A stretch of 64,000 nucleotides of DNA from a virus, in IMG/VR virus record IMGVR_UViG_3300026532_000001. One strand, 5' to 3'. The translations under genes were made by a program, and so were the position numbers. The notes beneath the pieces were generated by a model. The model saw nothing but the letters and a program-made list of their open reading frames with translations, ran no database searches and was not told the DNA's origin. Below are positions 5,543 to 58,002 of the stretch, piece after piece (position 1 is the stretch's first letter; the number at the start of each line of letters is the position of its first letter).

Positions 5543-7053
5543 TGTCTATTTTTGCTCTATTAGTTGCCCAAACGCCCATATCACACGGTGATCCTGGTGT
5601 AAGCAACGCATCCAATGTCATGCCGTTTCGCATGCAAGAGAGCCTCTATGCACGTCCAACACCACAAACGCCAATAGAGGACGATGAGGATCGCATTGGA
5701 CTGGAACCCGCAGAGCTCCAGATAGCCAATTTGCGCAAGGCAGAGGCAGCACTCATCCGCATGGTGGCCAGTTATCCACTCCCCGCAAACTCAGCACTAG
5801 CGGATGCTTTGCAGCAGCTTTCAGCAGAGGAGTTTGTTGCCTCTGCTTTTGTGTACTCACTCATTGCCCAGTTGAACCCGATGAATAAGGGAGATGGCTC
5901 TGGGCTCTTTAGCGGCATAGATCGCTACAATATGCTGCTCAAGCGTCTGGGGATTGTCTCAAATCAGTTCAATACCTCATTCTTCACGCTCTATTCAAGC
6001 CTCCTGAATGAATTGCTCATCAATGAGACACTGCCGCATTTTGTTGATCAACTCTATCCGTTTGCAGGTCTTCCACGCGGCTTGCAACAGTCCGTGATTG
6101 CTACACTGGGCAAAGAGCGCCAATCTGTCATCAGCATAGCCAGAGCGTGGTACAACGCCATCAAAGAGGCAAAAGAGAACAATCCAGATTGGGAGAAATG
6201 GGAAAGCATCTATTATGATCCTACTGGCAAGGTCTCAGGGAGCAGCTTAGACGATGCAGAAGCGGCTATTCCGCATATCAGTGGCAATGCATTCAGACAC
6301 TCCATCTTTCGAGAGATATTGTGTACGCATCTCTTGCAGGTATTGGAGTTTGGGTCGGTTGCCGATGTCGTCAAGAGTAATCTCATGCCTCCATATGTGA
6401 TCATGCTGCTCTCCAATGGCGGCAATATGGCGGCAAAAAGCACAGCACCTGACAATAGCGAGGCTATCAGTGCTACGATCAAGCGCACGTTCCCGTCTCT
6501 CGAACTGGTCTCAGGTGTGCTTCCAACGCACATTATGGGAGAAGGGGCTTTAAGAGTCGCTAATTGGACACTATGCCTGCAGAATAATGCCAATACAGCG
6601 GCATACGGCTATACGCGTGATATAGAGGCTGCTGCAACCCTAACTATTGTCACACATGCACGTCATGTTCCTGACGGTATGGATCATTCGAAAGAGTCGG
6701 GTCAGGGGCTTTTTGCCTATACTGCCATGAAGCCCGGGGCTCGTATCCTGATGAAACTGGACTTTCATCCATTCACCAGCGAGTTGGCCCGTGGAGCTGC
6801 ATACTTTGCGTTCAAAGAGTGGATAGCACGCGGTGCTCAAGTTGGAGGTCGCGAAGGGAGCGGATCAGGTCATTTTCTTGTGCCGGAGATCTCTATCCGT
6901 CCGTCATCAACGTTTGAGGATGAGAGTCTTGAGCAGTATGAGGATTATGCGCAAGAATATCAAGAATATGTTCAAGCCAACAAAGAGGTGCTACGAGAGG
7001 CATTGATGTACGGAACACTTGGCTGGCGTGAGAGGCTTAAGGCATGGGGATAG
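5542..7053 (+). CDS. Cas7-group RAMP-like protein (Csf2/Csm3/Cmr4-like motifs) with a large internal insertion
   Basis: ATG 5542 overlaps the upstream TAA (TAATG). Motifs: ALLVAQTPISHGD, IPHISGNAFRHSIFRE (nt 6268-6315), and G-loop VGGREGSGSGHF (nt 6841-6876). The functional call is inference. Confidence 0.45.
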   Translation: MSIFALLVAQTPISHGDPGVSNASNVMPFRMQESLYARPTPQTPIEDDEDRIGLEPAELQIANLRKAEAALIRMVASYPLPANSALADALQQLSAEEFVASAFVYSLIAQLNPMNKGDGSGLFSGIDRYNMLLKRLGIVSNQFNTSFFTLYSSLLNELLINETLPHFVDQLYPFAGLPRGLQQSVIATLGKERQSVISIARAWYNAIKEAKENNPDWEKWESIYYDPTGKVSGSSLDDAEAAIPHISGNAFRHSIFREILCTHLLQVLEFGSVADVVKSNLMPPYVIMLLSNGGNMAAKSTAPDNSEAISATIKRTFPSLELVSGVLPTHIMGEGALRVANWTLCLQNNANTAAYGYTRDIEAAATLTIVTHARHVPDGMDHSKESGQGLFAYTAMKPGARILMKLDFHPFTSELARGAAYFAFKEWIARGAQVGGREGSGSGHFLVPEISIRPSSTFEDESLEQYEDYAQEYQEYVQANKEVLREALMYGTLGWRERLKAWG

Positions 7054-20968: not shown

Positions 20969-21109
20969 ATGCTAGTTAATATACTTTGGATAGTATTTAC
21001 AGTTTGTCTGCTGCTCACATTCGTTGCGGTAGTTATGGCGAGATATAAGCAGAAGGAAGAGGAGACGCCTGGACTGGATAGAGTGCTGTTTAGAAGAAGG
21101 AGAAGATGA
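20969..21109 (+). CDS. small single-pass membrane protein
   Basis: MLVNILWIVFTVCLLLTFVAVVMARYK, followed by a basic tail. Confidence 0.4.
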   Translation: MLVNILWIVFTVCLLLTFVAVVMARYKQKEEETPGLDRVLFRRRRR

Positions 21110-21235
21110 TGAACAATAGAGAGATGTACGGATATACGGATATTATCATCAGCAATACTTGTGGCTACTTGCGTCTGTCTGCAAGTTATGCTACTATTCT
21201 AGATAGTAACGGTCAATCAAGAAAGGATCGAGGCC

Positions 21236-21436
21236 ATGATCAACATGCAGGAACGGTTCTTTACGCCAGAGCAGATTGCAGAAACGCTGCAAGTCTCAGA
21301 AGACACAATCATGCGTCTCTTGAGAGAGAAGATGCTCAAAGGAACCAAAGTCAGGAATCAGTGGCGCATCAAAGAGAGCGACCTGGAGAAGTTCCTGGAA
21401 GAAAACAGCAATATCCAAGAGGAACAGGACAAATAA
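21236..21436 (+). CDS. excisionase-family HTH protein
   Basis: FFTPEQIAETLQVSEDTIMRLLREKMLKGTKVRNQWRI. Confidence 0.6.
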   Translation: MINMQERFFTPEQIAETLQVSEDTIMRLLREKMLKGTKVRNQWRIKESDLEKFLEENSNIQEEQDK

Positions 21437-21624
21437 ATAAAGCCAGCGTATGCTGGCAGACAACAATTGAAAATTTTGTAGCATTCAGGTCATCAGCTCT
21501 GCTGTGGAAGGTTAAAGCTAATGACCCTAGGATTCGCTACCCTGTTTTTATAATACATAACCTTGCAAGAAAACGCAAGGTCTTGTATAGCAGAACATGG
21601 GTAGACGATAGAAAGTGTGTACCC

Positions 21625-22383
21625 ATGGAAGATGACAATTCAAGGATAATCCTCCTTAATCGCGGACAGGAAGTTATTGTAGACGAAAAATGGTTTAGAG
21701 AACTAAATCAACGCAGATGGCACATTCGCGATGGCTATGCAGCAGCAAATATTGACGGCGAGCGGACTTACATGCATCGTCACATCCTTCCTCCGCCAAA
21801 AGGCTACCTCGTTGACCATATCAACAGAAACAGGCTCGATAATCGCGAAGCAAATCTTCGGATAGTTACACATGTGCAAAATGCTCAAAACAGAGCATAC
21901 CACAAGAATAATAAAACTGGCTATAAGGGCGTGTTTTTCCATGAAAACACGCAAATATATACTGCTGCGATACGCCAAGGTGGCAAGCTCCGTTATCTTG
22001 GTCAATTTAATACCGCGATAGAAGCAGCAATAGCATACAATAAAGCGGCTATCGAAATTTGCGGAGAATATGCTTGGACCAATCCAATAGATGAAGCAGC
22101 GCCTTTGTTCACACAGCCCCCTGTAAGCACCTATACATCTTGCGATCCATGGGAATGCAAAAATGATGGTAGCTACAGTATGACCATAGGAAGTGCATAT
22201 GCTGATATATGCCCGTATATCTCCAGATCCAAGACATACTATCGGGCAACCGTGCAAGGCCCCAACACTCCTCGACTGCAAGAGAGTCTCTTTATTACTA
22301 TTGATGAGGCAAAGGGATGGTGTGAGCAGTGGATACACCACTTCGATGAATACCAACAACTCAAAAAAGCAGCAGAGCGATAG
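21625..22383 (+). CDS. free-standing HNH-AP2 homing endonuclease
   Basis: HRHIL...VDHINRNRLDNREANLRIVTHVQN (HNH_3 type), then AP2-like GYKGVFFHENTQIYTAAIRQGGKLRYLGQFNTAIEAAIAYNKAA. Start placed at MEDDNSR. Confidence 0.8.
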   Translation: MEDDNSRIILLNRGQEVIVDEKWFRELNQRRWHIRDGYAAANIDGERTYMHRHILPPPKGYLVDHINRNRLDNREANLRIVTHVQNAQNRAYHKNNKTGYKGVFFHENTQIYTAAIRQGGKLRYLGQFNTAIEAAIAYNKAAIEICGEYAWTNPIDEAAPLFTQPPVSTYTSCDPWECKNDGSYSMTIGSAYADICPYISRSKTYYRATVQGPNTPRLQESLFITIDEAKGWCEQWIHHFDEYQQLKKAAER

Positions 22384-33909: not shown

Positions 33910-35424
33910 ATGGCGATAAACTTTCCAAACTGGATACGCACAAAGAAGCGGCGTTCCCGTGTAATAGAACGTCCATTCCAAGCGCCTACCTACCCCGCAG
34001 ACTCGCATACCTCAGAGATGTTCGAACGCAACGTGGGCATCATCAATCTGGAAGCCGCAACGAAGCGCAGTGCGAAAGTTCCACAGCCCAGGGGACCCAA
34101 GAACCTCTCCATGGCATGGGATGACACCTCGTTAGGACTGGGTAGTGTTCAGACGCGGGAGGGCTTCCTGGATGACAGGCAGAAGAAGGATACGTACTAT
34201 CAGGTGTACTGCGGGAACCAGTGGGTTTCAGGCTGTGTAGATACCACCGCAGAACGCATGATCTCCGGTGGGTGGGAGACTGTCGAGATTGAGCAAGGGA
34301 AAGGCAATGCTGCCAATGAAGCGAAAGTAAAAGCGTTATTTGACTTTGAAGATGTAGAAGAAGATTTCTTGCAGTTTTTTAACTCAATTGCAACTGATTT
34401 ACTTATTTTTGGTGAAGCCTTCTGCGAAATGGTCTACGGGCCTGATGGTCTTGTGAGAAACTTATATACTATTGACTCTATCACGATGAATACGCAATTT
34501 GACATGCATGGAGTGATCACAGGGTATACCCAACGCTTGGAGAAGAGTACCGATGTTGTGGATTTTGAACCTCGCGAGATTATCCGCTGGTGGCTACCAG
34601 ACCCACGTGCGAAGAAAAAAGCGCTATCCCCTATCGAGAAGCTCAAGGACCCGGTATTCCTGGATCGATCTATGGTTACCTGGGGTGAGAAGTTCTTTAG
34701 GCAAGGTGGCAAGCCGTCCTATTGGGTCGAGATGGGGCCTGACTCCAATGAAGACGATGCCGAACGATACCGTAAGTGGTACTCTGAAAACTATACTGGC
34801 ATACAGAACGCGCATATACCGCCTATCATGTATGGAGGTGGCAAGATCCATGAGTTTGGTACGGGCTCTATTGAGATAGATTTCGATAAGAGTCAGGACA
34901 AGCAGCGGGATAGGGCGCTGGTCGTCTATGGGGTGCCACCTGCTATGCTCGGTATTATTGAAAGCGGCAATATAGGCGGTGGTACGGGTGAGAGTCAGAA
35001 CAAGTCATTTATCTATAATAAAGTCTTCCCATTAGAAAACAAGATACTTGAAAAGCTAAATTATAGAGCAGTCAAAACGGGACTGAATGTAGAAGACTGG
35101 CGGGTCCAAACGCGTCACGCAGATTACCGACAGGATGTAGATATCGCTACTATTGAGGATAAATCAATCAGAAATGGTACTCTCACTATCAACGAAGCTA
35201 GACAAGAACGCGGACGTACCGATGTCCCGGGCGGCGACACACCTATTCTCATCTCTGCTACCACTATCACACCCGTATCTCATTTGGAGAGTCTAGAGCA
35301 AGAACAACAGCAGCAATCCGCTCAGGACGACCAGAATAATCCCGATGATCAACAAGGTGACCAATCGCCACAGAACAACCAACAGCCTCCTCATAAGGAT
35401 AAACAAGAGGAGGCTGAGCAGTGA
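33910..35424 (+). CDS. portal protein
   Basis: 504 aa, follows TerL, with an acidic/Q-rich C-terminus. Confidence 0.8.
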   Translation: MAINFPNWIRTKKRRSRVIERPFQAPTYPADSHTSEMFERNVGIINLEAATKRSAKVPQPRGPKNLSMAWDDTSLGLGSVQTREGFLDDRQKKDTYYQVYCGNQWVSGCVDTTAERMISGGWETVEIEQGKGNAANEAKVKALFDFEDVEEDFLQFFNSIATDLLIFGEAFCEMVYGPDGLVRNLYTIDSITMNTQFDMHGVITGYTQRLEKSTDVVDFEPREIIRWWLPDPRAKKKALSPIEKLKDPVFLDRSMVTWGEKFFRQGGKPSYWVEMGPDSNEDDAERYRKWYSENYTGIQNAHIPPIMYGGGKIHEFGTGSIEIDFDKSQDKQRDRALVVYGVPPAMLGIIESGNIGGGTGESQNKSFIYNKVFPLENKILEKLNYRAVKTGLNVEDWRVQTRHADYRQDVDIATIEDKSIRNGTLTINEARQERGRTDVPGGDTPILISATTITPVSHLESLEQEQQQQSAQDDQNNPDDQQGDQSPQNNQQPPHKDKQEEAEQ

Positions 35425-35426
35425 TT

Positions 35427-36419
35427 TTAGAGCAGGCGTCCTCCCTCGGGCCATTCCCAGGGGAATTTATTCCCTTTGCTGAGGTTGCAAGTAGGGCAAG
35501 TCAATACCAAGTAGTCAATACTGTTAGCAGGAATATCGCTGCCAGTAACTCTGCTGAGTGGAAAGGTGTGTTCGATGTGGTAGATATACTTGCCCCTAGT
35601 CTTCTGGAATTTAGCATGTCCACAAGCAGCATAATAGCATCTGCCTTTCTGCCGCTTCAGTTGCTCTTGGATTTGAGCACTGGTATGTTTGCCTTCGATG
35701 CCCTTTTTTCTTGCTCTGTAGGCATGGCCTATTGTTTGATACATTACCTTGTTCTGCTGGTAATGTCTCTTATGGCGATCCTTAGTGTATTCTTTGTGTG
35801 CTTGATAGTATCGTTTGCTTCGTTTAGAAACGTGGTCTTTGTTAATCTCATTGTACTCCTTACAGTACTCTTTGTGCTCTTCTTTATGTGTATCGTTCCA
35901 GATTTTTTGACGTGCAAGGCGCTTGCCTCTGATTGTGGGTCGCATGCTATACTCTTTGCCTCTTTTGCTCTTGCATCCCTTGCATTGATAGTCAAACCTT
36001 ATTTCTTGCGCTGCACTACGATGAAAAAACTCTTCAGTCAATGGGTAGATGCTCTTGCATGTAGGACATCGCCTGTGCCCTTCAGGGACATCTGTGGTTT
36101 TAGGAGGTCTGGCAAGGCACTTCTTGCAATAAGGGTACAATCCGTCACTCCTCCCTTTGGCTCTAGAGAAGAAATCTACAGTAGCAGGCTTGATTTCTTT
36201 ACATTTGCTGCATCGCTTATGACCTTCTGGTATAGCAATGTGGGGCTTTTCCTTATTTTCTTTGTTGGATATCATTACACAGCTTTTGCACTGAGTATTG
36301 AGCCCATCTTTTTGGCGTTTATGGGAGAAAAAATGTTCTTTGGTAGCAGGAAAGAATTGGTTACATTTCCTGCATTGCTTGAGGGGAACATTGACGTTCT
36401 GGGGTACAATATCACTCAT
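35427..36419 (-). CDS. free-standing HNH homing endonuclease with four tandem Zn-ribbon modules
   Basis: Repeats of the form KxCxKCxxxxPxxxxxFxxxxxxxDGLxxxCKxC. HNH core YHIEHTFPLSR...CPTCNLSKGNK. Own promoter. Antisense to the late operon. Confidence 0.85.
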   Translation of the reverse strand: MSDIVPQNVNVPLKQCRKCNQFFPATKEHFFSHKRQKDGLNTQCKSCVMISNKENKEKPHIAIPEGHKRCSKCKEIKPATVDFFSRAKGRSDGLYPYCKKCLARPPKTTDVPEGHRRCPTCKSIYPLTEEFFHRSAAQEIRFDYQCKGCKSKRGKEYSMRPTIRGKRLARQKIWNDTHKEEHKEYCKEYNEINKDHVSKRSKRYYQAHKEYTKDRHKRHYQQNKVMYQTIGHAYRARKKGIEGKHTSAQIQEQLKRQKGRCYYAACGHAKFQKTRGKYIYHIEHTFPLSRVTGSDIPANSIDYLVLTCPTCNLSKGNKFPWEWPEGGRLL

Positions 36420-36499
36420 GGAAAGGCTAACTCCTTTTCATCACGCCTCCAGATGTTGACTGCATCGTGGGGGCAAAAACATGTTCAATTTATGAGATT

Positions 36500-36508
36500 A
36501 TTATACCA
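36500..36508 (-). promoter_or_regulatory. extended -10 TGGTATAAT for HNH 35427..36419
   Basis: Minus strand TGGTATAAT. Followed by a 5'-UTR hairpin (36445-36474) and GGCGTGATGA (36438-36447). Confidence 0.55.
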
Positions 36509-36532
36509 TAAATTGGCTTGGAGGGCTAGCCT

Positions 36533-36727
36533 GTGAATAATCCTAACGAGCATCAGAAAGTACGTTGCAGGAACAACCATACTATCCTGCATTATGATGC
36601 ACAAGGGTTGCATCTCCGTTGTAGGCATTGTAAGACAATCGAGATAAAACCCTGGGCAGAAGTATTGCAGATGTACACATCCATTGCATCTTCACCAGAA
36701 TTTGATGCTCGTATCTTGCATTCCTAA
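36533..36727 (+). CDS. small zinc-ribbon protein (Com-like layout)
   Basis: VRCRNNH...LRCRHCK. The GTG start overlaps the stop of the + strand bridging ORF. Confidence 0.4.
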   Translation: MNNPNEHQKVRCRNNHTILHYDAQGLHLRCRHCKTIEIKPWAEVLQMYTSIASSPEFDARILHS

Positions 36728-36747
36728 TTGCTTCTCAAGCCGATTTA

Positions 36748-36756
36748 TGGTATACT
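36748..36756 (+). promoter_or_regulatory. extended -10 TGGTATACT for the EndoVII gene
   Basis: Followed by a hairpin (36776-36804) and GGCGTGATGA (36802-36811), 18 nt before ATG 36830. Confidence 0.55.
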
Positions 36757-36829
36757 AAGCTCATAAATATTGTGTGCCCCGGCGTTGCTGAAACAACCCG
36801 AGGCGTGATGACAGAAAGGAACTTCCGTC

Positions 36830-37429
36830 ATGAGTATCAGTATACCATCTTCAAAAATATGCATCCATTGCCACCAAGAAAAGTCCCCCGATGATTTCTA
36901 CTATCCCTACAAAAATGTCTGCAAGCAATGTAATCTGGCCTATCAAAAAAGAGAGAGGCAAAGAATAAAGCTTCAGCAGCAGTCATTTCCACCTCCTGAT
37001 GTTAATCAGACAAAACAGTGCAGAGCATGCAAAGAGATCAAAAATGTTGAGGCCTTTAAAAAGGATAAAGGGACGCGTGGGGGGTACATATCTCTTTGTA
37101 AGGCGTGTCATGTTAAGGAAGAGTATAAGAGGTCAACGACGAACCCCAATAGAACGCCCTCACGTCGATGGAAAAAGATAAATTTTACATACAAGGAGTA
37201 CTGCCGAATGCTAGAAGAGCAAGGCGGTGTGTGTGCTATCTGTAAACAGTCGGAAACTATTGTCAATCGTGCTCATAATACGCCTCTTCAGCTTGCAGTT
37301 GATCACAATCACGATACCGGACAGGTTCGCTCATTACTTTGCAGTGCCTGTAATTTAGCTGTAGAGAGAGTAGAAAGAGATATAGAGTATCATAAAAGCT
37401 TGCTTGCATACCTGGAACTTCACTCATGA
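36830..37429 (+). CDS. Zn-ribbon / endonuclease VII-family homing endonuclease
   Basis: Two Zn-ribbon modules like the HNH paralogs. The C-terminus QGGVCAICKQ...LAVDHNHDTGQVRSLLCSACNLAVE is EndoVII type. Confidence 0.8.
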   Translation: MSISIPSSKICIHCHQEKSPDDFYYPYKNVCKQCNLAYQKRERQRIKLQQQSFPPPDVNQTKQCRACKEIKNVEAFKKDKGTRGGYISLCKACHVKEEYKRSTTNPNRTPSRRWKKINFTYKEYCRMLEEQGGVCAICKQSETIVNRAHNTPLQLAVDHNHDTGQVRSLLCSACNLAVERVERDIEYHKSLLAYLELHS

Positions 37430-41357: not shown

Positions 41358-42554
41358 TTAGAGGAGACGTCCACCTTCTGGAAATTCCCAAGGGCACTTG
41401 TTTCCTTTGCTTTGATTGCAGTGAGGGCAAGTGAGAACAAGGTGAGAAATCTCATTACGAGGTTGAAGGTCTGTTCGTGTGATAGGGATGGTATGGTCAA
41501 CGTGATAAACGTATTTCCCTTTGATCCTCTTGATCTTGGATCTGCAATAGTAGCAATAGTAACGTTGCCTCTTCAACTGCTCTCGAATCTGTGCAGGGGT
41601 ATGAGAGCCTGGAATGTTTTTAATACGAGCCCGACGATTGCGCGTGTAAATCCTAAGGTACTCTATGTACCATTCTTTGTGTGCTTGTCTATACTCCTTG
41701 CTATATTGCAGGCGCTTACCCTTATTGGCTGCATAATACATCTTTTGACGTTTGAGTATATCTTCCTTATGCAAGGCATAATGCTGTCGTTTCTTCTCTA
41801 TGATCCATTCTCTGTTTTTATGCCAGTACTGTCTATCTCTTTGGGCTATACGTTCTCTCAGCAAGGGACGCCGCTCTCTTCGTCTTTGGTTTACTGCTTC
41901 TCTGTTTTGTTGCAAGTATTGTCTCTTTTCGTTTTGAGTACAAGCTTTGCATCGAGAGTACAATCCATCTTTAGAAGTTTTGCGTGCTCCAAAGTATTCA
42001 CTAGTAGATGGCTTAATTTCTCGGCAACTCGAGCAGCGTTTTTGTCCTTCTGGAAGTTTCTCTATGGGCTTTCTTTTGAGCCTTCTCCTGTTACGGGTAT
42101 ATTCGTTTGCGCATTTTTTGCATCGAGACATAACTCCGTAAGCATACTCCTTGGCAGGATAAAAGAACTCGGTGGTTGCTGGAAGAATTTCTTGGCATTT
42201 AGAACACTGTCTATGTCCTTCAGGGATAGGATTAGGATTGGGCTGTTTCTTGCTTTCGCTATAAGCTCTACAGCAGATTTTGCACCAGGAATGCAGTCCA
42301 CTTTTTTCCGTTCTACATGCATGAAAGTGTTGCATAGTGGCTGGTTTAACCTCTGTGCAATTTGGACAACGTTTGTATCCATCGGGCACAACAGGAGTTT
42401 TCCTTGGTTGAGGTTTCTTCCGCGCTTTGCAACATTTCTTGCAAAGCGTCCTGAGGTGATCTTGTTTGCTCCTATCGGATTGAAAGTACTCAAGGGTGGC
42501 AGGATATTCTTGTTTGCACCCGTTGCAGCGTTTCTGTGGTATAGTATCACTCAT
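41358..42554 (-). CDS. free-standing HNH homing endonuclease with five or six tandem Zn-ribbon modules
   Basis: Same repeat architecture as 35427..36419. HNH core YHVDHTIPITR...CPHCNQSKGNK. Confidence 0.85.
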   Translation of the reverse strand: MSDTIPQKRCNGCKQEYPATLEYFQSDRSKQDHLRTLCKKCCKARKKPQPRKTPVVPDGYKRCPNCTEVKPATMQHFHACRTEKSGLHSWCKICCRAYSESKKQPNPNPIPEGHRQCSKCQEILPATTEFFYPAKEYAYGVMSRCKKCANEYTRNRRRLKRKPIEKLPEGQKRCSSCREIKPSTSEYFGARKTSKDGLYSRCKACTQNEKRQYLQQNREAVNQRRRERRPLLRERIAQRDRQYWHKNREWIIEKKRQHYALHKEDILKRQKMYYAANKGKRLQYSKEYRQAHKEWYIEYLRIYTRNRRARIKNIPGSHTPAQIREQLKRQRYYCYYCRSKIKRIKGKYVYHVDHTIPITRTDLQPRNEISHLVLTCPHCNQSKGNKCPWEFPEGGRLL

Positions 42555-42636
42555 GGTACGTCTCCTTTAAGTTGCGTATCATCACGCCAGCGGTTGTTAG
42601 AGCAACGCGCTGGCAAACCCATATTTAGATGGGTTA

Positions 42637-42645
42637 ATTATACCA
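42637..42645 (-). promoter_or_regulatory. extended -10 TGGTATAAT for HNH 41358..42554
   Basis: Followed by a 5'-UTR hairpin (42586-42614) and GGCGTGATGA (42579-42588). Confidence 0.55.
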
Positions 42646-42703
42646 CAAAGCCGCCTCCAATGCCAGTTTACAGGGAGGAGGTGGTACTATCCCTCGCTTC
42701 TAC

Positions 42704-43609
42704 ATGACCCCCCAAGAAATTCAGGATACCCCACTCGGGCAAGGGTTGAGTGCTTCCATTTCTGCCTTACCAACAGGGCAAATAGATCGAATGCTAGCGA
42801 AAGCCTCAGCACGCTGTGACTCTGAGTGTAGACGCCGCTTGCAGGCCCCGGGCTCTACTACACTCTCACAGAACGCTAGTCCAGGGGCTACACAGCTCTC
42901 GCTTGCCTCTACAGTCACCTTGGATGAGCTTGACGAACAGGCTGTACAGATCGGTAGCGGATCGACACAGGAGACGATCCTAGTCAAGTCTGGAGGTGTG
43001 AATGTCACGAATTGGGCATCTCCCTACCCAGGCACAATCAATCTTGCAAGTGCTACACAGTTCTCTCACAGCTCAGGAGATCCTGTAGTCTTTCTCTACA
43101 AAGAGACAACAGAGGCCGGTGGCGCGTCTAGCTCAGACCCATATGCAGAGGCAGCCCTTACACAAGAGGCTCAAATTGCAGCGTCTCACATGCCATCCTT
43201 GCATAGTGGCCTGACACGTGTAGTTTTCTTGCGCAATTATCCCATTATCACTATATTAGCTATAGAACATGCATTTTCATTTACAACGCAATTTAATACA
43301 GTTGATGTAACTGCACAAATACCTGTACCTACAGAAGGATGGTACCGTTTCAGCCCCGGGAGCATGATATTGCGTGAAGGGATTATGCGCACAACGTACA
43401 CGGGAGGTTTCCAGAATATACCAGATGACATAAAGGAGGCTACAAGCAAATTCTTTGCAGTGGCTATGAGGCAGATGATTAACCCATATGGAACGATTGA
43501 ACTGCATTTGGGTAAGCGTAAGCAGAAGTGGGCAGCAAGAGGTGGAGAGAAAGATCCTCTGGTAGAAGAAGCATGCCGTATTTTGAAGAAGTATAAGAGG
43601 ACGGTATAG
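42704..43609 (+). CDS. head-tail adaptor/connector (gp6-like, extended)
   Basis: C-terminal NYPIITILAIEH...TTYTGGFQNIPDDIKEATSKFFAVAMRQ resembles head-tail connector family endings. Confidence 0.5.
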   Translation: MTPQEIQDTPLGQGLSASISALPTGQIDRMLAKASARCDSECRRRLQAPGSTTLSQNASPGATQLSLASTVTLDELDEQAVQIGSGSTQETILVKSGGVNVTNWASPYPGTINLASATQFSHSSGDPVVFLYKETTEAGGASSSDPYAEAALTQEAQIAASHMPSLHSGLTRVVFLRNYPIITILAIEHAFSFTTQFNTVDVTAQIPVPTEGWYRFSPGSMILREGIMRTTYTGGFQNIPDDIKEATSKFFAVAMRQMINPYGTIELHLGKRKQKWAARGGEKDPLVEEACRILKKYKRTV

Positions 43610-46232: not shown

Positions 46233-46489
46233 AGTACTTCAAGATGAGTCTTAGCGATTCAGGTAAAGCGCAAAGCGAGGTATGGCGTCGTCAAGCCTTG
46301 GTCGGTCTCAAGGCATCAAGCTTTCATACCAGTGGAAGCCTAGAGGTCTCTACCTGGACTGCAGATGTAGTTGGTGAGGCAATCTTTCGCCAAGTGCTCG
46401 TAGATATGCAAATTCAGCATGAGGAAGGTAACGAACAGCAGATTTTTACTTTCCTGGATAAACACTTTTCGTTAGATGAAAGGAAGTAA
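46229..46489 (+). CDS. hypothetical tail-module protein
   Basis: 86 aa; ATGA overlap. Confidence 0.4.
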   Translation: MKYFKMSLSDSGKAQSEVWRRQALVGLKASSFHTSGSLEVSTWTADVVGEAIFRQVLVDMQIQHEEGNEQQIFTFLDKHFSLDERK

Positions 46490-46491
46490 AC

Positions 46492-46986
46492 TTGCCTTCT
46501 GGCCCTAATACACCAGCAATCTTGCAACAAATTAAGACCATGGCGCAAGGTGTCCAGGTTGGATCCTCCAACTTCTTCCAGTCTGCGAACTGCAAAGTGG
46601 GGCGCTTCAAGGATATTCGGGACAATCTGCCAGCATTCGAAGTCGTCCTGGGTCCTAAGGATGAGACCAAGCGGCAAACCAGCGGGGGCGCTCCTGTCGT
46701 AGGGGGAAGGATCGATGACTCGCAAGACTACACCTTTGAGGTCACGTTGGCATATTCGGATGCGGACTCTGAAATAGTGGAAAGCACAACCTTGCCAGGC
46801 ATCAGAGACGCACTCACACAGATGTTCCACGCCTCTGCAAATCTTGGCATGCCTGGGCAAGTACAGAGTAGCCAGCTCACCGGAATTGGTGAGTATTTGT
46901 ATCTCATGAGAAGCGGTGAGATCTACCGCATGTATCGCAATGTGTTGCGTGTGCAATATCAATATAACGTTTTGATGGTTCCATAG
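46492..46986 (+). CDS. tail completion/terminator-like protein (putative)
   Basis: 164 aa, TTG start, positioned before the tube gene. Confidence 0.4.
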   Translation: MPSGPNTPAILQQIKTMAQGVQVGSSNFFQSANCKVGRFKDIRDNLPAFEVVLGPKDETKRQTSGGAPVVGGRIDDSQDYTFEVTLAYSDADSEIVESTTLPGIRDALTQMFHASANLGMPGQVQSSQLTGIGEYLYLMRSGEIYRMYRNVLRVQYQYNVLMVP

Positions 46987-46996
46987 GAGAAAATGT

Positions 46997-47179
46997 ATGG
47001 AGACAAAGATAGCAGATGCCGATGGCAAGGTGGATCAAAACGGACATGAGGCGACGTATCCACCGGGTACAAAAGTCTTCTTTGAAGCGGGTGCCTACGC
47101 AGGCCACGTCTCGCCAGAAGTCCCAGAAGAAGAGAAACCAGCTAAGATACAAAAGAAGCAAATAGAGTCGAAAGAATGA
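46997..47179 (+). CDS. hypothetical small protein
   Basis: 60-aa ORF. Confidence 0.35.
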   Translation: METKIADADGKVDQNGHEATYPPGTKVFFEAGAYAGHVSPEVPEEEKPAKIQKKQIESKE

Positions 47180-52916: not shown

Positions 52917-55075
52917 CTTTAACGGTAGTGAATGGCAAGGACGTTACCAAATATGTACAAAACACGATAAACTTTGATCAAGCAATTAATGATCAGCTTC
53001 CAAAAGCTAATTTTGATGTGATAGACGACGGATGCTTGCTCTCATTTGATTGGGGTATGGAGTGTATACTCTGGGATGAGAATGCACCAAATGCACCTAC
53101 GTTCAATCCCGCTGTAACTGTACCAACAGTACCATCGCACAATATTCTACAGAATGCCATGACCATAAGCGGCTCTCCATGGTCAACATCTGGTGCACAC
53201 GCGGGGCTTATTTCGTACACGCAAGCATTCGAAATGCAGATGATCTTCAATAATAACGTGCTCGGAGCGGGACTACTCCAACAGACAACGCTTAATGGCT
53301 ATGTCCATCCCGGACAGAACTACATGCTCTCTGCTTACATCAACATCGCAACCGCACTGGTCAATTGCCGCACCGTGATGATAATTGAGTTCCTGGATAG
53401 CTCAGGCAATACGATCATAGGCAATTATGCCTTACGCGCATTTGGGGCACCAGTAGAGTATAGCAATAACGGCATCACGATCAACAATCAGGATGGAGTA
53501 CTCTCCAACACACGCGTCTCTCTTCAGGCGACTGCACCCCCGGGAGCTGCAAACATCCGGGTATCACTTGGTGGCGAAACCATGGTGGCTGGTAGCAACT
53601 CAGGTACGTTCAAAATTGCCACCTTCCAGTTAGAGCCGATGTATTTCTCCGACCCCTCTGTGGATTGGAATGTCAGCTACCCCACGCCTGACTGCAACTA
53701 CAACCAAGTGAACTGCTCGCAGATGCCAGACTTCACGGTCTCGCGCACCTGCCGTATCTTCTCAGGCTACATTGATGACTTCAATGTGGATTATGATGGC
53801 CCGAATCGCACATGGCACATCTCTTGTGCAGGACCTGGTGCGCAATTGGAGAATGGCAATATTAACGCGGTGTTCACTGGTCAGACCGATGCTACTATCC
53901 TCACCACACTGGTCAGCACCTATTTTGCTGGTCAGCTCTCGACTGTTGCGCCCAATAGCAGTAGCGCGGCTCCTATCCAAACAGGCATCACAGAGGATAA
54001 CATCACTTATGGTGACAATTCACTCAGAGAAGTAGCCAACGGTCTTACTGATAAATCTGGGTTTGTCTCTTTTGTAGACATGTACTACACTTTGCGTTAT
54101 CAACCTTCATTCTACAATGTCGCCTCTTTCACTCTTGTTGAAGCACCGGATGAATCAGCCTCTTTTCCCTACTCTGTGTACAACTACAAGAAAGATGGAA
54201 CACAGGTAAAGAGGCGCATTAAGATCACGGGTGGCAAATTCATTGCAACGGCTTTTGAGCAATTCAGCGGAAATGGCACAAATAAGATATTTACATTGGC
54301 AAACACACCATATTCAATGAATTCGCTTGTGTCGGCTGGTGTAACTCAGAGGGTGGGTATTGCAGGCAGGGATGGATTTACAGGTCAGTACGATGTATTG
54401 ATGAATAAGACTGCCAGGACGTTGCAATTTAACGCTGCACCGCCCAGCGGTACGAACAACATCACTGCGGTCTATGGCTATGAAGCCCCGGTGAGCACGC
54501 AGGCTATTATGCAAGGCTCAGGGCTGCCTTCGCTACCTGCCTATGCTATCCCGCTCTTTGACAGCAAAGTCAACGACACGAACATTATCAGCTTGACCAG
54601 TGCGACCCAGCGAGGTCTAGCGGAAATTGCCAAGAGCGGGAACCCAAGGGAGATCATCAAGGCAACTTCTGAGGTGTTCGCACCAGCAGGCGTAGCAGTC
54701 TACATCACGCATCAGAGGAACGGCATTATCAATAAGCCATATGTCATTCAGAGCGTGCACGGGCGCTACCTTGGGAACGGTATCAATGAGTATGATTATG
54801 TATTAGGCTCATTCAATCCTTCCATCATAGATCATCTGAGAAATGCTAACAAAGCCATGAATAGGAGCATAACGGTTAGCGGGGTAACAGCTCCTCAACA
54901 GGTGGATGTGGTAGCAATCGAAACTATATCCTATCGAGACTCTATTAGTGCTGTACCAGTGGCAAATTATGCAGTAGGGGTTTATGGGACTGGTTTATAT
55001 GGTCAGTGTAGTTATGGTGGGCAAACAGGTGTTTACGGAGTTGCGCAATATGGTAGATCGACAATTTACGGGTAG
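52913..55075 (+). CDS. distal tail / tail fibre-like protein
   Basis: 720 aa, immediately after the tape measure, beta-rich. Confidence 0.55.
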   Translation: MTLTVVNGKDVTKYVQNTINFDQAINDQLPKANFDVIDDGCLLSFDWGMECILWDENAPNAPTFNPAVTVPTVPSHNILQNAMTISGSPWSTSGAHAGLISYTQAFEMQMIFNNNVLGAGLLQQTTLNGYVHPGQNYMLSAYINIATALVNCRTVMIIEFLDSSGNTIIGNYALRAFGAPVEYSNNGITINNQDGVLSNTRVSLQATAPPGAANIRVSLGGETMVAGSNSGTFKIATFQLEPMYFSDPSVDWNVSYPTPDCNYNQVNCSQMPDFTVSRTCRIFSGYIDDFNVDYDGPNRTWHISCAGPGAQLENGNINAVFTGQTDATILTTLVSTYFAGQLSTVAPNSSSAAPIQTGITEDNITYGDNSLREVANGLTDKSGFVSFVDMYYTLRYQPSFYNVASFTLVEAPDESASFPYSVYNYKKDGTQVKRRIKITGGKFIATAFEQFSGNGTNKIFTLANTPYSMNSLVSAGVTQRVGIAGRDGFTGQYDVLMNKTARTLQFNAAPPSGTNNITAVYGYEAPVSTQAIMQGSGLPSLPAYAIPLFDSKVNDTNIISLTSATQRGLAEIAKSGNPREIIKATSEVFAPAGVAVYITHQRNGIINKPYVIQSVHGRYLGNGINEYDYVLGSFNPSIIDHLRNANKAMNRSITVSGVTAPQQVDVVAIETISYRDSISAVPVANYAVGVYGTGLYGQCSYGGQTGVYGVAQYGRSTIYG

Positions 55076-55077
55076 CT

Positions 55078-55614
55078 ATGTTTAAGAGAAGAAAATACAC
55101 AATAGAAGAGCATATCAAGTTCACAGGCATCGTTAAGGCGCGTGAGTTGCCCGCTGGCTGTACGCGGGAAGACTTCCTAGGCTGGTGGCCTAGACTTTCT
55201 GAAAAGGAGAGGGAGCGCTATACCGCTTATGAGCATAAAAATATTTTAACAAATAGTGGCAGAAATCAGCTATTAAATTTCATAGCATCAAATAATGTCG
55301 TTGTTGGCGCATTTGCTCAATACTTTGCGGTGGGAACCTTCCCCATCACGTCGGTTAGTCCTGGGGATACTCAGGTCCAAACCGAGATTTTCAGAGCCGT
55401 GCCGACATTGATCACGCTTACAGGTCAGCAAGTGAACATCTCGACCTATTTCGGCCCCAGTCAGGCTAACGGGAACTATACAAATTGTGGATTGTGGGGA
55501 ATTAATGCAAGTGCCACTTTGAGCAGCGGTACGCTCATGACGCACGCGTTATACACATACAGTAAAATTAACAATCAGGCCATAACTAATGATTACCTTC
55601 ATGTCGTGCAATAG
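55078..55614 (+). CDS. tail-associated protein
   Basis: 178 aa in the tail module. Confidence 0.45.
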   Translation: MFKRRKYTIEEHIKFTGIVKARELPAGCTREDFLGWWPRLSEKERERYTAYEHKNILTNSGRNQLLNFIASNNVVVGAFAQYFAVGTFPITSVSPGDTQVQTEIFRAVPTLITLTGQQVNISTYFGPSQANGNYTNCGLWGINASATLSSGTLMTHALYTYSKINNQAITNDYLHVVQ

Positions 55615-55713
55615 GAAGCAAAAGGTGGCATTATATTGTCAAGTCAACTAAAAGTAAAAAATATAGCTCAAACATTTTATTTGTTTGAGCTATCACATAG
55701 GGAAATTGAGAGA

Positions 55714-56670
55714 TTAGACACCTCTACGTTGACGAGCTGTCATTTCAGAGGGCAGCTTCTTGCCCTTTCTCCTATTACAGACATGGTGAGTTGCTGCAAG
55801 GTTCTCCTCGCTATGAGGTCCTCCGCGAACAATGGGGATCACGTGGTCAAAATCAATCTTATGATGAGGGAGAATAGGCTTTTCGCAGATATAGCAAATG
55901 CCGTTACTCTTTGCAAGAACGCTTCTGTAATTTACTTTGCCAGTAGTGACTCTCTTCTTGAATGCATATCTCCTTCTGCTATATTCTATTACTTTCAAAG
56001 AGTTTTCTTTTCTCCAATTCTTTGTGTACTCAGACATCAACAGCGGATTCTCTGCTTTCCACCTTTCGTTGAGAGCGCGATGCGCATCCTTGTTATTCCT
56101 GTACCATCTCTTCCCTGTTTCAAGTCTACGTTGCCTGTTAGCAGGAATTGCATAAGAATCACGGTTATGCGTTTGTGTGCACTCTTTGCACCAGATATTA
56201 TAACCAGATTTATTGCGATTGTCCTTGGTAAATTCGCTAAATGGCTTCTCAGCCCGACATTGGGAACAAACCTTCCCACCATTCAATGCTGCAGGCAAAG
56301 GCTGTATTTTCCTTCCCTCCCTATCAGCACGGACCTGTCCTGCCTCGCTAATACATGTTTTGCAATGAGACGTATACCCACCTGTGTCTTTACGCTTGTG
56401 GAATTCCGTGATCGGTTGCTCTATAAGGCATCTGGAACAAACCTTCCCACCAGCCACAGCTTTAGGTTTGTTTCTAACAGGCACATAGTGTTCTTGGTGA
56501 TACTCTTTACTATTTGCCCGAATGCAGTCTTTGCAGCGAGCCGAGCATCCATGCTTACCACGGATATCCGCATAGAAGTCTTCAAGGGGCTTTTCTATCT
56601 GGCATTGCTTACAAACCTTGCCAGTAACAAAAAGAGGGAGTTGTTGAGCAGTATGATATGCTTCATTCAT
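55714..56670 (-). CDS. free-standing HNH homing endonuclease with tandem Zn-ribbon modules
   Basis: GKVCxxCxxEKPxxxF repeats. HNH core IDFDHVIPIVRGGPHSEENLAATHHVCNRRKGKK. Confidence 0.85.
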   Translation of the reverse strand: MNEAYHTAQQLPLFVTGKVCKQCQIEKPLEDFYADIRGKHGCSARCKDCIRANSKEYHQEHYVPVRNKPKAVAGGKVCSRCLIEQPITEFHKRKDTGGYTSHCKTCISEAGQVRADREGRKIQPLPAALNGGKVCSQCRAEKPFSEFTKDNRNKSGYNIWCKECTQTHNRDSYAIPANRQRRLETGKRWYRNNKDAHRALNERWKAENPLLMSEYTKNWRKENSLKVIEYSRRRYAFKKRVTTGKVNYRSVLAKSNGICYICEKPILPHHKIDFDHVIPIVRGGPHSEENLAATHHVCNRRKGKKLPSEMTARQRRGV

Positions 56671-56754
56671 GACGAAAAATCTCCAATCAGATTTAGTAGT
56701 CTAGGGCCTAGAGCGTGCTACCAACATGTTCTAGGGCCATTTTGTTGTGCCTCC

Positions 56755-56763
56755 ATTATACCT
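56755..56763 (-). promoter_or_regulatory. -10 element AGGTATAAT for HNH 55714..56670
   Basis: Minus strand GAGGTATAAT. Followed by a 5'-UTR hairpin ggccctaga...tctaggccc. Confidence 0.45.
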
Positions 56764-56798
56764 CATCAATCCCCATTTGTCTATCAAGGAGGTGCTTT

Positions 56799-57355
56799 TT
56801 GGCCCTAAATACCGTAACTACCGGAAACACCGTGCTCGCCGCTGACGTTAGGTTTGGCGTCCCTTGTCGGTAACGACATTGCAAAATCCTGGCTAAACGG
56901 GGAACGCTGAGATGCCAATCCCGTGCTAAATCAAATGCCGAGAGACTATACACCAGGCTCCCTAACGGGATGAAGATAGAGTCCGATCTTACAGGAAATG
57001 AACTGTAAGAGTGTAGCAGAAATGACTACATCCATCTCACATGAGATGAGTAACAAGAAGCAATCAATTGGTGCAAGTTTTGCAACGTGGTTCAGGACAG
57101 ACAGAGGCTGGTAAATGGTTTCTTTTCAGTGGGGGCTATCAAAACGGGTGGATTGTGAGCCAGTACATTGTTTCGCTCTCCAGAAACAGTACACCAAGCT
57201 CTGTAACTGTCGATACTGCCGATCAGGCTCCTACCCAGGCAGCAGGGACAGTTGCAACACAAAATCTTACTGCAAATGGCTTTGTAGTAGATTATGGCGT
57301 CAACGGGCTTACAAACACATCACGGGCAGGTGGGAATTACACCATACAATATTAA
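56799..57355 (+). CDS. intron-interrupted tail fibre-like gene, join(56799..56848,57061..57355), 114 aa
   Basis: AAGGAGG (56786-56792) lies 6 nt before TTG 56799. Exon 1 reads MALNTVTTGNTVLAADV. Splicing gives ...AADV|NQLVQVLQRGSG... in frame. Confidence 0.6.
56849..57060 (+). ncRNA. group I self-splicing intron (IA2, T4 td-like core), 212 nt, no ORF
   Basis: Core strings CTAAACGGGGAAC, CAATCCCGTGCTAAAT, AAATGCC and GACTAT...GATAGAGTC match what I recall of the T4 td intron. Pairings: P1 56844-48/56857-61 with a U-G wobble at the splice site; P3 56888-92/56953-57; P4 56897-902/56919-24; P9 hairpins. The last nucleotide is G 57060. Confidence 0.75.
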
Positions 57356-57370
57356 TTTTGGAGGTGATAC

Positions 57371-57460
57371 ATGAGAAGAATAGTTGTACACGCTATATGG
57401 ATTGCAGCACTTCTATTGTTCGCTTTTGAGCTATTTCACGGCTTATCACTCTTAGGATAG
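57371..57460 (+). CDS. small hydrophobic peptide (29 aa)
   Basis: GGAGGTGA SD. Translation is MRRIVVHAIWIAALLLFAFELFHGLSLLG. Below the ORF-track cutoff. Confidence 0.3.
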   Translation: MRRIVVHAIWIAALLLFAFELFHGLSLLG

Positions 57461-57465
57461 GAAAC

Positions 57466-58002
57466 ATGACAATACAAGCAATAACACAAGAAGGAATGCT
57501 GCACTGGACATGCATGGGGATGCAAATGGAGTGCCAGGAGCCTCTTTCAGCACACGTGTCAGAAGCTCGGTATGTTGGAGAAGCACAAGGGGCTGTAATC
57601 CACCTTCCACCTTGTTCAGCATGTGGTGGTGTATGCCAACTCAAAGCAGACTACAGCTTAAAAGAGCTGTTCAAGGAAACATTAACGATTGTAGACAATA
57701 TGGGCAATATCAAAGGGTATGCTATGCCGCTGCAATATTCTCGCAATCTGCTCATACACCACATGCTCTATCAGATGGGCAAAGCTGAGCATGCTCCAGT
57801 GTTGCCGATGCCAAACGAGGGATTTCTTGAGATGATGGTGCCGCTAGGGAATGCGGATCTGGCTTATTCCCTCTGGTTTTCGTGGGCGTTGCTGAGGGAG
57901 CGAGGGCAGATGGTAGCAAGCTTCGATCAATTCTTTTTAGGCTTCTCCGAGGGACTGGCTTTGCCGAAAGGAGGTTCTCATGCCAATCAAATCGATACAT
58001 GA
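57466..58002 (+). CDS. hypothetical Cys-containing protein
   Basis: 178 aa with CSACGGVC. Confidence 0.45.
   Translation: MTIQAITQEGMLHWTCMGMQMECQEPLSAHVSEARYVGEAQGAVIHLPPCSACGGVCQLKADYSLKELFKETLTIVDNMGNIKGYAMPLQYSRNLLIHHMLYQMGKAEHAPVLPMPNEGFLEMMVPLGNADLAYSLWFSWALLRERGQMVASFDQFFLGFSEGLALPKGGSHANQIDT

Follow-up and report, generated by a model that had tools for sequence, protein, structure and literature searches.

A gene for an HNH endonuclease lies reversed in the late operon of an uncultured soil siphovirus, and the plus-strand frame that mirrors its codons is open beyond chance. The window, the whole 64,000-nt stretch analysed, belongs to IMG/VR record IMGVR_UViG_3300026532_000001 (genome GC, 47%) and contains no tRNA genes. 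We consider it rather probable that the insert is a natural "non-polar" cassette whose mirror frame, by being translated, retains ribosomes on the late mRNA; that it is translated, like the relief from polarity or restored coupling this would bring, is an inference.

Stop depletion in the frame opposite HNH gene 3

The frame, its putative ribosome-binding site and the gene it mirrors are located as follows.
55622..55628, plus strand: Shine-Dalgarno (SD)-like AAGGTGG, 7 nt before TTG 55636
55636..56808, plus strand: bridging ORF 3, 390 codons, TTG start, codon-register mirror frame of the HNH gene
55714..56670, minus strand: free-standing HNH endonuclease gene 3, 318 aa, ATG start, with three CxxC...CxxC zinc-finger repeats and an HNH domain

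Judged by its profile matches, HNH gene 3 is a real HNH endonuclease gene, as an earlier note made from the letters alone had proposed; site-specific cleavage and homing have not been demonstrated. The protein matches PF01844 (4.8e-9) and PF14279 (2e-8) over residues 259-311 and phrog_1035 (8.4e-44), and the motif residues H276, N299, C259, C262 and C298 are conserved in HNH alignment A1.

Bridging ORF 3 covers the whole gene, whose 318 codons include no TTA, no CTA and no TCA. Given the gene's own Leu and Ser content, ~6.5 such codons are expected (P = 6.8e-4), and a naive calculation from the rate across window ORFs (3.25%) yields P = 2.8e-5; each of the 39 other long ORFs of the window carries at least three. 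The depletion is confined to the codons complementary to stops, with ATA, GTA, CCA, ACA and GCA in normal use, and to one frame, the other two plus-strand frames over the gene containing 16 and 14 stops versus 0 in the bridging frame. This frame is also open across 78 flanking codons (P = 0.04). The earlier note had described both the 318-codon gene without these codons and the 390-codon plus frame starting at TTG 55636; the codon counts agree, and the ORF list gives identical coordinates. Its claim of a dedicated SD and TTG start likewise stands, with TTG 55636 placed 21 nt past the stop of the upstream gene (TAG 55612-14).

Bridging ORF 3 had been presented as the third of its kind, and the same pattern is indeed found over the HNH genes of two sister loci, with a co-oriented gene serving as internal control.
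35421..36536, plus strand: bridging ORF 1, 371 codons, over HNH 35427-36419 (minus strand)
36830..37429, plus strand: co-oriented EndoVII/HNH-type gene (internal control), 9 TTA/CTA/TCA in 199 codons
41343..42707, plus strand: bridging ORF 2, 454 codons, over HNH 41358-42554 (minus strand)

Taken together, the three counter-oriented HNH genes lack stop-complement codons with a joint P of 3e-11, and each of the other plus-strand frames over them contains 14-24 stops. HNH3 shares only 25-30% identity with HNH1 and HNH2. Bridging ORF 1 begins with a GTG that overlaps the portal gene stop (GTGA) and ends with a TGA overlapping the GTG of a 64-aa ORF (36533-36727), while the TGA of bridging ORF 2 overlaps the ATG 42704 of the next gene (ATGA). 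At locus 2, no SD precedes the first canonical start, located 79 nt from the upstream stop, and the insertion site is empty in six relatives (L174-L179), in which the two flanking genes lie 12-40 nt apart.

Orientation dependence across other phages

Among HNH homologues in other phages, 19 counter-oriented genes contain 43 stop-complement codons versus 117.8 expected, and 20 co-oriented genes contain 149 versus 152.5 expected (observed/expected, 0.98). Open mirror frames occur over 9 of 19 counter-oriented and 0 of 21 co-oriented genes (Fisher, 3e-4). Orthologues at 35-48% identity (L005, L006, L094 and others) retain the open frame at saturated synonymous sites. The openness claimed in the earlier note is beyond chance and extends to orthologous and paralogous cassettes with saturated synonymous sites. 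A blind search for register-paired long ORFs recovered further cases: another HNH gene in the close relative L176, a counter-oriented GIY-YIG-like gene with 0 such codons in 396 (L069; 29 and 21 stops in the other frames), and a counter-oriented TnpB gene with 2 such codons versus 8.2 expected (L005).

These data bear on whether the mirror frame is a compositional "shadow" ORF, open by accident over a protein with little Leu and Ser and much Lys, Glu, Arg and Cys. Shadow ORFs fall most often in the register frame, Leu (4.7%) and Ser (5.2%) are indeed scarce in the HNH genes, and the 291-codon register shadow over a capsid gene (L047) shows that mirror ORFs of such length do not require a bridging function. 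The probabilities given above (7e-4 for HNH3, 3e-11 for the three genes) nevertheless already count the Leu and Ser content, co-oriented homologues are not depleted, the frame runs on through non-coding flanks to stop at the start of the next gene, and the pattern recurs in unrelated endonuclease families; an accidental origin is therefore highly improbable. Scarcely credible at all is an avoidance imposed by tRNA supply to the endonuclease mRNA, for example through early expression when the tRNAs for TTA, CTA and TCA are scarce or cleaved, rather than by the opposite strand. All three codons are relatively rare (1-1.4% each), but in this phage they are in normal use among early-region genes, among minus-strand genes and in the co-oriented endonuclease gene, and tRNA supply explains neither the orientation dependence nor the open non-coding flanks and junctions.

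An overprinted gene encoding a functional 390-aa product, such as a regulator of the endonuclease or an immunity factor, would also require an open frame, and the length of the ORF, its SD and its start codon are compatible with such a gene. For bacteria, there are reports of antisense overlapping genes that are translated (PMC8850804). Against a functional product, neither that of bridging ORF 3 nor those of its two sisters match Pfam or PHROG, and the mirror proteins of orthologous cassettes are only ~20-25% identical. Codons at conserved HNH residues are identical no more often than randomly expected (55 versus 54.6 and 48 versus 49.9), revealing no extra constraint on synonymous sites. Open mirrors additionally lie over unrelated GIY-YIG-like and TnpB genes, whose mirror products cannot be homologous. 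An overlapping gene is accordingly improbable, although less so than the two preceding accounts.

At 16 of 18 loci, the frame stop falls between 11 nt inside and 21 nt before the start of the next operon gene, forming ATGA, GTGA, TGATG or TAAnATG junctions, often with an SD just upstream. Frame starts are weak and variable, with TTG and GTG common, and the first start does not lie clearly closer to the in-frame stop than expected at random; the start-site evidence is weaker than the stop-site evidence. Entry by read-through from the upstream gene was considered, since frame 3 is in frame with that gene and bounded by its TAG, and was rejected because only 3 of 16 loci share this arrangement, at or below the chance level of one in three.

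The design is lineage-specific and no general rule, as about half of the surveyed counter-oriented HNH genes (e.g., L027, L056 and L078) and T4 segD are undepleted. The latter, antisense between genes 23 and 24, contains 9 TTA/CTA/TCA in 223 codons and was rejected as a known analogue, its mirror frame not being open. Searching cultured phages with the HNH protein by tblastn returned only distant matches (26-30% identity); the three inspected are all co-oriented and therefore supply no cultured example of the design.

Insertion site, putative expression signals and the adjacent intron

The cassette, the putative expression signals of the HNH gene and the flanking genes comprise the following features.
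55078..55614, plus strand: upstream tail-module gene, 178 aa, stop TAG 55612-14, phrog_5417 (E 1.7e-11)
55615..56798, no strand assigned: inserted HNH cassette 3, 1184 nt, replaced by a 12-nt spacer in relative L173
55663..55693, minus strand: terminator-like hairpin and T-run just past the HNH stop, from a consensus scan only
56707..56735, minus strand: hairpin in the HNH 5' UTR, its shape conserved among cassettes
56755..56783, minus strand: promoter-like site of HNH gene 3, TAGACA-17-TATAAT, 11/12 consensus matches, inside the 3' part of bridging ORF 3
56786..56794, plus strand: strong SD AAGGAGGTG of the downstream gene, inside the end of bridging ORF 3
56799..56848, plus strand: exon 1 of the downstream 114-aa gene, TTG start 56799-801, MALNTVTTGNTVLAAD + GT, colinear with L173 5550-5599
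56849..57060, plus strand: putative group I intron, 212 nt, without an ORF, from RF00028 and comparison with L173
57061..57355, plus strand: exon 2 of the downstream gene, ORF 57068..57355, by homology to L173 5600-5897

The close relative L173 has an empty site, with its tail gene stop at 5537 and the ATG of the next gene at 5550, and comparison with it identifies the 1184-nt HNH cassette and the 212-nt group I intron in the next gene as additions in the window. The upstream tail-module gene, the last before the cassette, has an 83% identical homologue in L173. The L173 homologue of the downstream gene, free of both intron and HNH gene, begins MALNTVTTGNTVLAADINQLV, which establishes TTG 56799 as the downstream start and bears out the claim that the bridging stop (TAA 56806-08) overlaps it; this stop lies inside exon 1 in another frame. 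The downstream protein has no PHROG match, and the label "fibre" is unconfirmed. Nothing in the phage collection matched 55000-58000 by megablast. Across 55000-57600, four independent assemblies do not differ, leaving a SNP test without power.

The HNH promoter had been placed within the plus frame, and its TAGACA-17-TATAAT elements do occupy 56783..56755, on consensus grounds only. Twelve other cassettes have an equivalent, TGGTATAAT, ~85 nt before the HNH ATG, again as consensus matches alone. In all cassettes, promoter-like site and structured 5' UTR lie within the last 140 nt of the bridging ORF. Read on the plus strand, the 5' UTR hairpin (56707..56735) resembles a weak terminator; the terminator-like hairpin at 55663..55693 has no T-run on that strand and should therefore not stop plus-strand transcription.

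This embedding of the HNH signals raises the possibility that translation of the frame benefits the endonuclease itself, either by silencing HNH late in infection through ribosome and RNA polymerase traffic over its promoter and 5' UTR or by avoiding sense/antisense RNA duplexes that would be cut by RNase III. The need to limit homing endonuclease expression tightly, stressed in a review (PMC2988022), fits such a role. Transcriptional interference, however, would not need an open frame, and the exact placing of the stop where the next gene starts suggests that it is the operon that gains; we regard a benefit to the endonuclease as unlikely yet conceivable, and as the least weak of the alternatives.

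The earlier note had also placed an intron in the downstream gene, which holds on two grounds. A full-length RF00028 match at 56839-57005 scores 37.1 bits (gathering score, 50; E = 1.1e-7 in a 1-kb search), found in an E-value scan only, with no match in the Rfam scan at the gathering threshold. Exact removal of 56849-57060 yields MALNTVTTGNTVLAADVNQLVQVLQ, where L173 has the uninterrupted MALNTVTTGNTVLAADINQLVQVLQ, and restores the L173 reading frame (..AADV joined to NQLVQVLQ..). The 5' exon ends at U56848, which would form the U-G pair of a P1 helix between GACGU and GCGUC (the last five bases of GGCGUC), and the terminal base of the intron is G57060, directly before exon 2. On these grounds the element is probably a group I intron; self-splicing has not been demonstrated. 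Its 212 nt just downstream of the cassette are untranslated and evidently tolerated, which counts against a need for bridging.

Cyanophage S-PM2, with psbA and F-CphI, provides an example of collaborative homing. In this scenario, a free-standing endonuclease acts beside an endonuclease-less group I intron (PMC2988022). The window is similar in that the HNH gene lies ~130 nt upstream of a gene with a small ORF-less group I intron, but its endonuclease is upstream and antisense, and there are no data on cleavage at the intron insertion site. The window and L006 each have the HNH gene together with the ORF-less intron, and L173 has neither, a comparison of only three genomes.

Proposed passage of ribosomes across the insert

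The insertion, the frame- and orientation-specific stop depletion, the junction architecture and the absence of protein-level conservation are observed. They can be assembled into a mechanism in which a mobile free-standing HNH homing-endonuclease cassette would have entered the late (structural) operon in reverse between two tightly packed genes, its minus strand bringing its own promoter, structured 5' UTR and one-way terminator. On the operon strand, the insert would present an SD and start codon 21 nt past the stop of the upstream gene, a mirror frame kept stop-free by avoidance of TTA, CTA and TCA in the HNH gene, and an end on the SD and start codon of the next gene. With a start, a stop-free frame and a stop at the next start, ribosomes leaving the tail gene could go on translating through 1.2 kb of antisense RNA that otherwise codes for nothing and enter that gene. 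Rho-type termination, formation of the terminator-like hairpin, mRNA decay or loss of translational coupling would be prevented. Translation of the frame is inferred, as are an unbroken late transcript and the benefit to the operon, whether relief from polarity or restored coupling. The bridging polypeptide is probably a by-product; making 390 aa of hydrophobic, Cys-rich protein is costly, which counts against the bridging model.

Untranslated C-rich RNA is a substrate for Rho. The plus strand of cassette 3 is pyrimidine-rich with a C>G skew of +0.105 versus -0.03 in the late region, and to that extent its sequence resembles a Rho-loading site. Cassettes 1 and 2 have no such skew, and a Rho-loading site was rejected as a general feature because it is seen in cassette 3 only. 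Scanning genome contigs for a host with HNH alignment A2 gave two irrelevant matches, and with the portal none; as the host is unknown, neither the presence of Rho nor the degree of transcription-translation coupling can be judged. Coupling may not be needed, since the downstream gene is preceded by its own strong SD.

In operons, ATGA, GTGA and TGATG overlaps, together with an SD lying within the 3' end of the preceding ORF, are a mark of translational coupling. Bridging ORF 3 shares this arrangement, its stop overlapping the next start and AAGGAGGTG lying inside its end, and differs from coupled operon ORFs in that the "upstream ORF" has no product-level function and merely spans a selfish insert. 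Engineered non-polar cassettes (e.g., aphA-3) carry a downstream SD and start in frame. The window cassette resembles them as an operon insert that passes ribosomes on through a 3' SD and a stop/start overlap; unlike them, it is natural and 1.2 kb long, and the strand opposite its cargo gene is inferred to be translated over its full length.

In T4-like phages, co-oriented free-standing endonuclease genes often overlap the upstream ORF, suggesting translational coupling (PMC2988022). As with the T4 seg and mob genes, selfish endonuclease genes here lie between conserved phage genes, are variably present among relatives and must fit the transcription programme of the host (PMC2988022). The window HNH genes differ from the co-oriented T4-type genes in being counter-oriented, with overlaps made by the mirror frame. 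Long ORFs antisense to a known gene and in its codon register are also described as shadow ORFs, for example in Pseudomonas aeruginosa (PMC8850804); they lie within host genes of GC-rich genomes, and purifying selection on their proteins has been argued for. The window ORF differs by occurring in a genome of 47% GC and by extending past both gene ends to abut its neighbours, with only its openness conserved. A literature search found no account of stop-free mirror frames over endonuclease genes; most subscription journals were outside its scope, and prior art is possible.

Whether selfish counter-oriented nuclease genes (HNH, GIY-YIG and TnpB) in the late operons of this soil-phage group share a selected "ribosome bridge", an ORF kept for the act of translation that renders the insert non-polar and sets the allowed orientations and sites, we hold to be evenly balanced. 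Annotators should bear in mind that extended "shadow ORFs" lying over mobile genes may be there through selection, and the arrangement hints at rules for placing payloads in phage operons, whichever way they point. If true, such a bridge would define a new class of ORF that functions without a functional product, and would parallel in nature the engineered non-polar cassettes, with selection holding a kilobase-long frame open purely to retain ribosomes on the mRNA. In uncultured phage-host systems, constraint on the synonymous sites of selfish genes would then reveal transcription-translation coupling or Rho-type polarity. Host and selfish element would be seen to accommodate each other along a new axis, and it would become clear how homing endonuclease genes can lie backward in essential operons without harm to the phage.

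Locus 3, its empty site, and the adjoining intron

The window has a match in an 84-kb contig from a soil metagenome; the region is a siphovirus-like late operon carrying portal, tape-measure, tail, and lysis genes. The counter-oriented HNH gene at locus 3 (HNH3) and its neighbourhood recur on several contigs assembled from different samples. The earlier note had proposed that a 390-codon, TTG-initiated + frame with its own SD bridges this gene and ends over the start of an intron-containing gene, with the HNH promoter embedded in it. The ORF listing returns exactly the proposed limits, and each remaining element was located:

Features of locus 3
55612-14 (+): stop TAG of the upstream tail gene
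55615-56798: HNH cassette, a 1184-nt insertion relative to L173
55622-28 (+): SD-like AAGGTGG, 7 nt to TTG 55636
55636..56808 (+): bridging ORF, 390 aa, TTG start (ORF listing)
55693..55663 (-): terminator-like hairpin after the HNH3 stop (predicted)
55714..56670 (-): HNH gene, 318 aa, ATG start (ORF listing)
56783..56755 (-): promoter-like TAGACA-17-TATAAT (predicted)
56786-94 (+): AAGGAGGTG
56799 (+): TTG start of the next gene
56806-08 (+): bridging stop TAA
56849-57060: group I intron in the next gene, a 212-nt insertion relative to L173

HNH3 encodes a genuine HNH endonuclease (Pfam HNH, 4.8e-9; phrog_1035, 8e-44) that contains three zinc-finger repeats; no family match was found in Pfam or PHROG for the bridging-ORF product.

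In L173, a relative with an 83% identical upstream tail gene, the HNH site is empty: the tail gene stop at 5537 is followed by a 12-nt spacer and ATG 5550. Its downstream gene is uninterrupted and encodes 115 aa (N-terminus MALNTVTTGNTVLAADINQLVQVLQ). Being absent from L173, the HNH cassette and the intron are two additions in the window, both ordinary and of known kinds. The intron gives a full-length match to Rfam RF00028 (37.1 bits, below the gathering score; E 1e-7), with a U at the 5' exon end pairing with a G in P1 and a terminal G; its removal joins ...AADV to NQLVQVLQ..., colinear with L173. By this alignment, it is a compact, ORF-less group I intron with limits fixed exactly by the intron-less homologue, and the colinearity with L173 identifies TTG 56799 as the true start of the next gene, which the bridging stop overlaps. 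L006, where the HNH is 40% identical, shares this layout: an antisense HNH follows the tail gene, and after a short exon 1 comes a longer intron (~515 nt) in the same position or close to it. An HNH gene adjoining an ORF-less intron, the two occurring together or not at all, resembles collaborative homing (PMC2988022), a likeness that is a lead only, with cleavage untested.

The L173 contig also includes locus L176, where (5681-6826) a counter-oriented HNH gene occupies a fourth site and a full bridging ORF of 375 codons again ends over the start of the next gene. This phage lacks the HNH genes of window loci 2 and 3, the two sites checked (no like comparison covers locus 1), and site occupancy is highly polymorphic among close relatives.

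Depletion of stop-complement codons

In this window (47% GC), TTA, CTA, and TCA, read as stops on the opposite strand, jointly account for 3.25% of the codons of the 39 other long ORFs, and every one of these ORFs has at least three. HNH3 has none in 318 codons, as the earlier note had counted (naive P 2.8e-5; given the gene's Leu/Ser content, 6.5 expected, P 6.8e-4). The remaining two + frames contain 16 and 14 stops, and ATA, GTA, CCA, ACA, and GCA occur at background proportions, making the avoidance specific. The bridging frame is open also across 78 non-coding flank codons (P 0.04). HNH1 (35427-36419) and HNH2 (41358-42554), both counter-oriented and only 25-30% identical to HNH3, share this property (joint P for the three genes, 3e-11), and a co-oriented EndoVII/HNH-type gene of the same window (36830-37429) has 9 in 199. 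The open mirror frame at HNH3 is not chance.

For a survey, 94 non-redundant HNH loci were drawn from viral and metagenome contigs. With comparison limited to loci with at least three expected, counter-oriented genes (n=19, the window's own three among them) have 43 such codons vs 117.8 expected (P 2e-15), and co-oriented genes (n=20) have 149 vs 152.5. Nine of 19 counter-oriented genes are open vs 0/21 co-oriented (Fisher 3e-4). Chance or composition as the source of the open frame is excluded by conditioned statistics and co-oriented controls, and codon avoidance driven by tRNA availability fails, contradicted by internal controls and leaving the open flanks unexplained. The counter-oriented set is heterogeneous, with depletion absent in some phages (L027, L056, L078); T4 segD has 9 in 223. 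The HNH3 orthologues of L006 and L005 have 0/347 and 1/352, under mirror ORFs of 386-405 codons.

Among the HNH homologues compared, synonymous sites are saturated and identical-codon counts at conserved residues equal random expectation (55 vs 54.6, 48 vs 49.9, others alike), so each open frame is an independent observation. The same counts lack the extra constraint expected from a functional mirror protein. Such an overlapping protein is disfavoured by this missing conservation and by the recurrence of open mirror frames over unrelated genes; the bridging product itself is probably irrelevant.

A blind search for register-paired long ORFs across all fetched loci recovered, beyond the HNH query genes themselves, the HNH of L176 (0/328 stop-complement codons, with 24 and 19 stops in the other frames), a GIY-YIG-like gene in L069 (0/396; 29 and 21 stops), a second HNH in L057, and the TnpB gene of L005 (2 vs 8.2 expected, P 0.012). 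In L069 (9477-10823), a 443-codon operon-strand ORF ending 21 nt upstream of the next gene's ATG spans the counter-oriented GIY-YIG-like gene of 396 codons (PF22945 E 6e-5, below threshold). In L005 (3181-4764), the TnpB (IS605 OrfB) gene is counter-oriented within a related phage's late operon, and the element appears to interrupt a papain-like peptidase (C1) gene. Over 374 codons, the TnpB mirror frame contains just 2 stops, located where a new SD+ATG ORF restarts. As a caveat, a major capsid gene in L047 (3581-4753; Phage_capsid, 7e-31) is overlain by a shadow ORF of 291 codons in the register frame: non-mobile genes, probably codon-biased, can also give rise to long mirror ORFs. Two further long opposite-strand ORF pairs lie in the window. 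Neither product of 46414-47028(-) / 46492-46986(+), a pair under the length cut-off of the search, has a PHROG match, and the public gene call prefers the + ORF; in the second pair, 21106-22383(+) / 21703-22359(-), confirmed by the blind search to be in codon register, the minus ORF looks like a shadow within a 425-aa gene.

Junctions and minus-strand signals

At 16 of 18 loci, the mirror frame terminates at most 11 nt inside the next operon gene or 21 nt ahead of its start, usually with an SD just 5' of that start.

Examples of stop-start junctions
ATGA: window locus 2, L057
GTGA: window locus 1, L123
TGATG: L092, L097
TAAnATG: L069
Start a few nt ahead of the stop: window locus 3, L176

At window 42673-42707, the HNH2 cassette is inserted exactly at the start codon of a 301-aa gene: relatives start MPRLYLTP, the homologous ATG is ATC in the window, and the ATG that follows, at 42704, is the one sharing bases with the bridging TGA. 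A strong SD there, GGGAGGAGGTGG, has spacing that suits ATC, not ATG. The window portal gene (33910-37429 region) encodes 504 aa; the homologous ORF is unbroken in five relatives (L180-L184; 685-731 aa) and split in L185 and L186. On its 3' side lie the antisense HNH1 cassette, a 64-aa Cys-rich ORF (36533-36727, GTGA overlap), and the co-oriented EndoVII-type gene (36830-37429); the HNH1 cassette may have truncated or split the portal-region gene.

Mirror-frame starts are less uniform than stops; several overlap or closely trail the upstream stop, and SDs are often weak. The locus 3 start shares the frame of the upstream tail gene, separated by only TAG and 7 sense codons (55612-55636). Read-through from that gene was considered and rejected, the shared frame, found in only 3 of 16 loci checked, being probably coincidence.

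On the minus strand, the cassettes share an extended -10 motif (TGGTATAAT, about 85 nt 5' of the HNH start codon), a conserved 5' UTR hairpin, and a second hairpin pairing the SD with the AUG (window 56671-56760, 36420-36510, and 42555-42645; also L118, L123, L124, L092, L097, L005, L006, and L094). The first hairpin is GC-clamped, with an inner GCGnUGC...AACA motif, often then CGUGAUGA. This structured 5' UTR has no Rfam match; these endonuclease genes may thereby carry a cis-regulatory RNA not yet described. Read as its complement, the first hairpin of cassette 3 resembles a weak + strand terminator.

Probable ribosome crossing of the insert

A review of T4 mobile elements states that endonuclease genes must fit the host transcription programme, and describes co-oriented genes overlapping upstream ORFs and an antisense segD (PMC2988022). 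Stop-free mirror frames bridging operon genes are undescribed there and in the full-text literature searched, whose coverage is incomplete.

That the frame itself is under selection is near certain. Because a reading frame is visible only to translation, the stop purge, specific to frame and orientation and reaching from close to the upstream stop as far as the downstream start, is best explained by ribosomes crossing the insert, and the bridging frame is likely translated, which has not been demonstrated. A benefit to the endonuclease, through late silencing or RNA-duplex avoidance, remains possible, alone or in addition. We lean, with some reserve, towards ribosome crossing that serves the operon: ribosomes would read its mRNA over the insert, melting the weak terminator-like hairpin in cassette 3, with the likely benefit of avoiding polarity (Rho-type termination, hairpin termination, or mRNA decay) or restoring coupling between two flanking genes that lie only 12 nt apart in the uninvaded genome.
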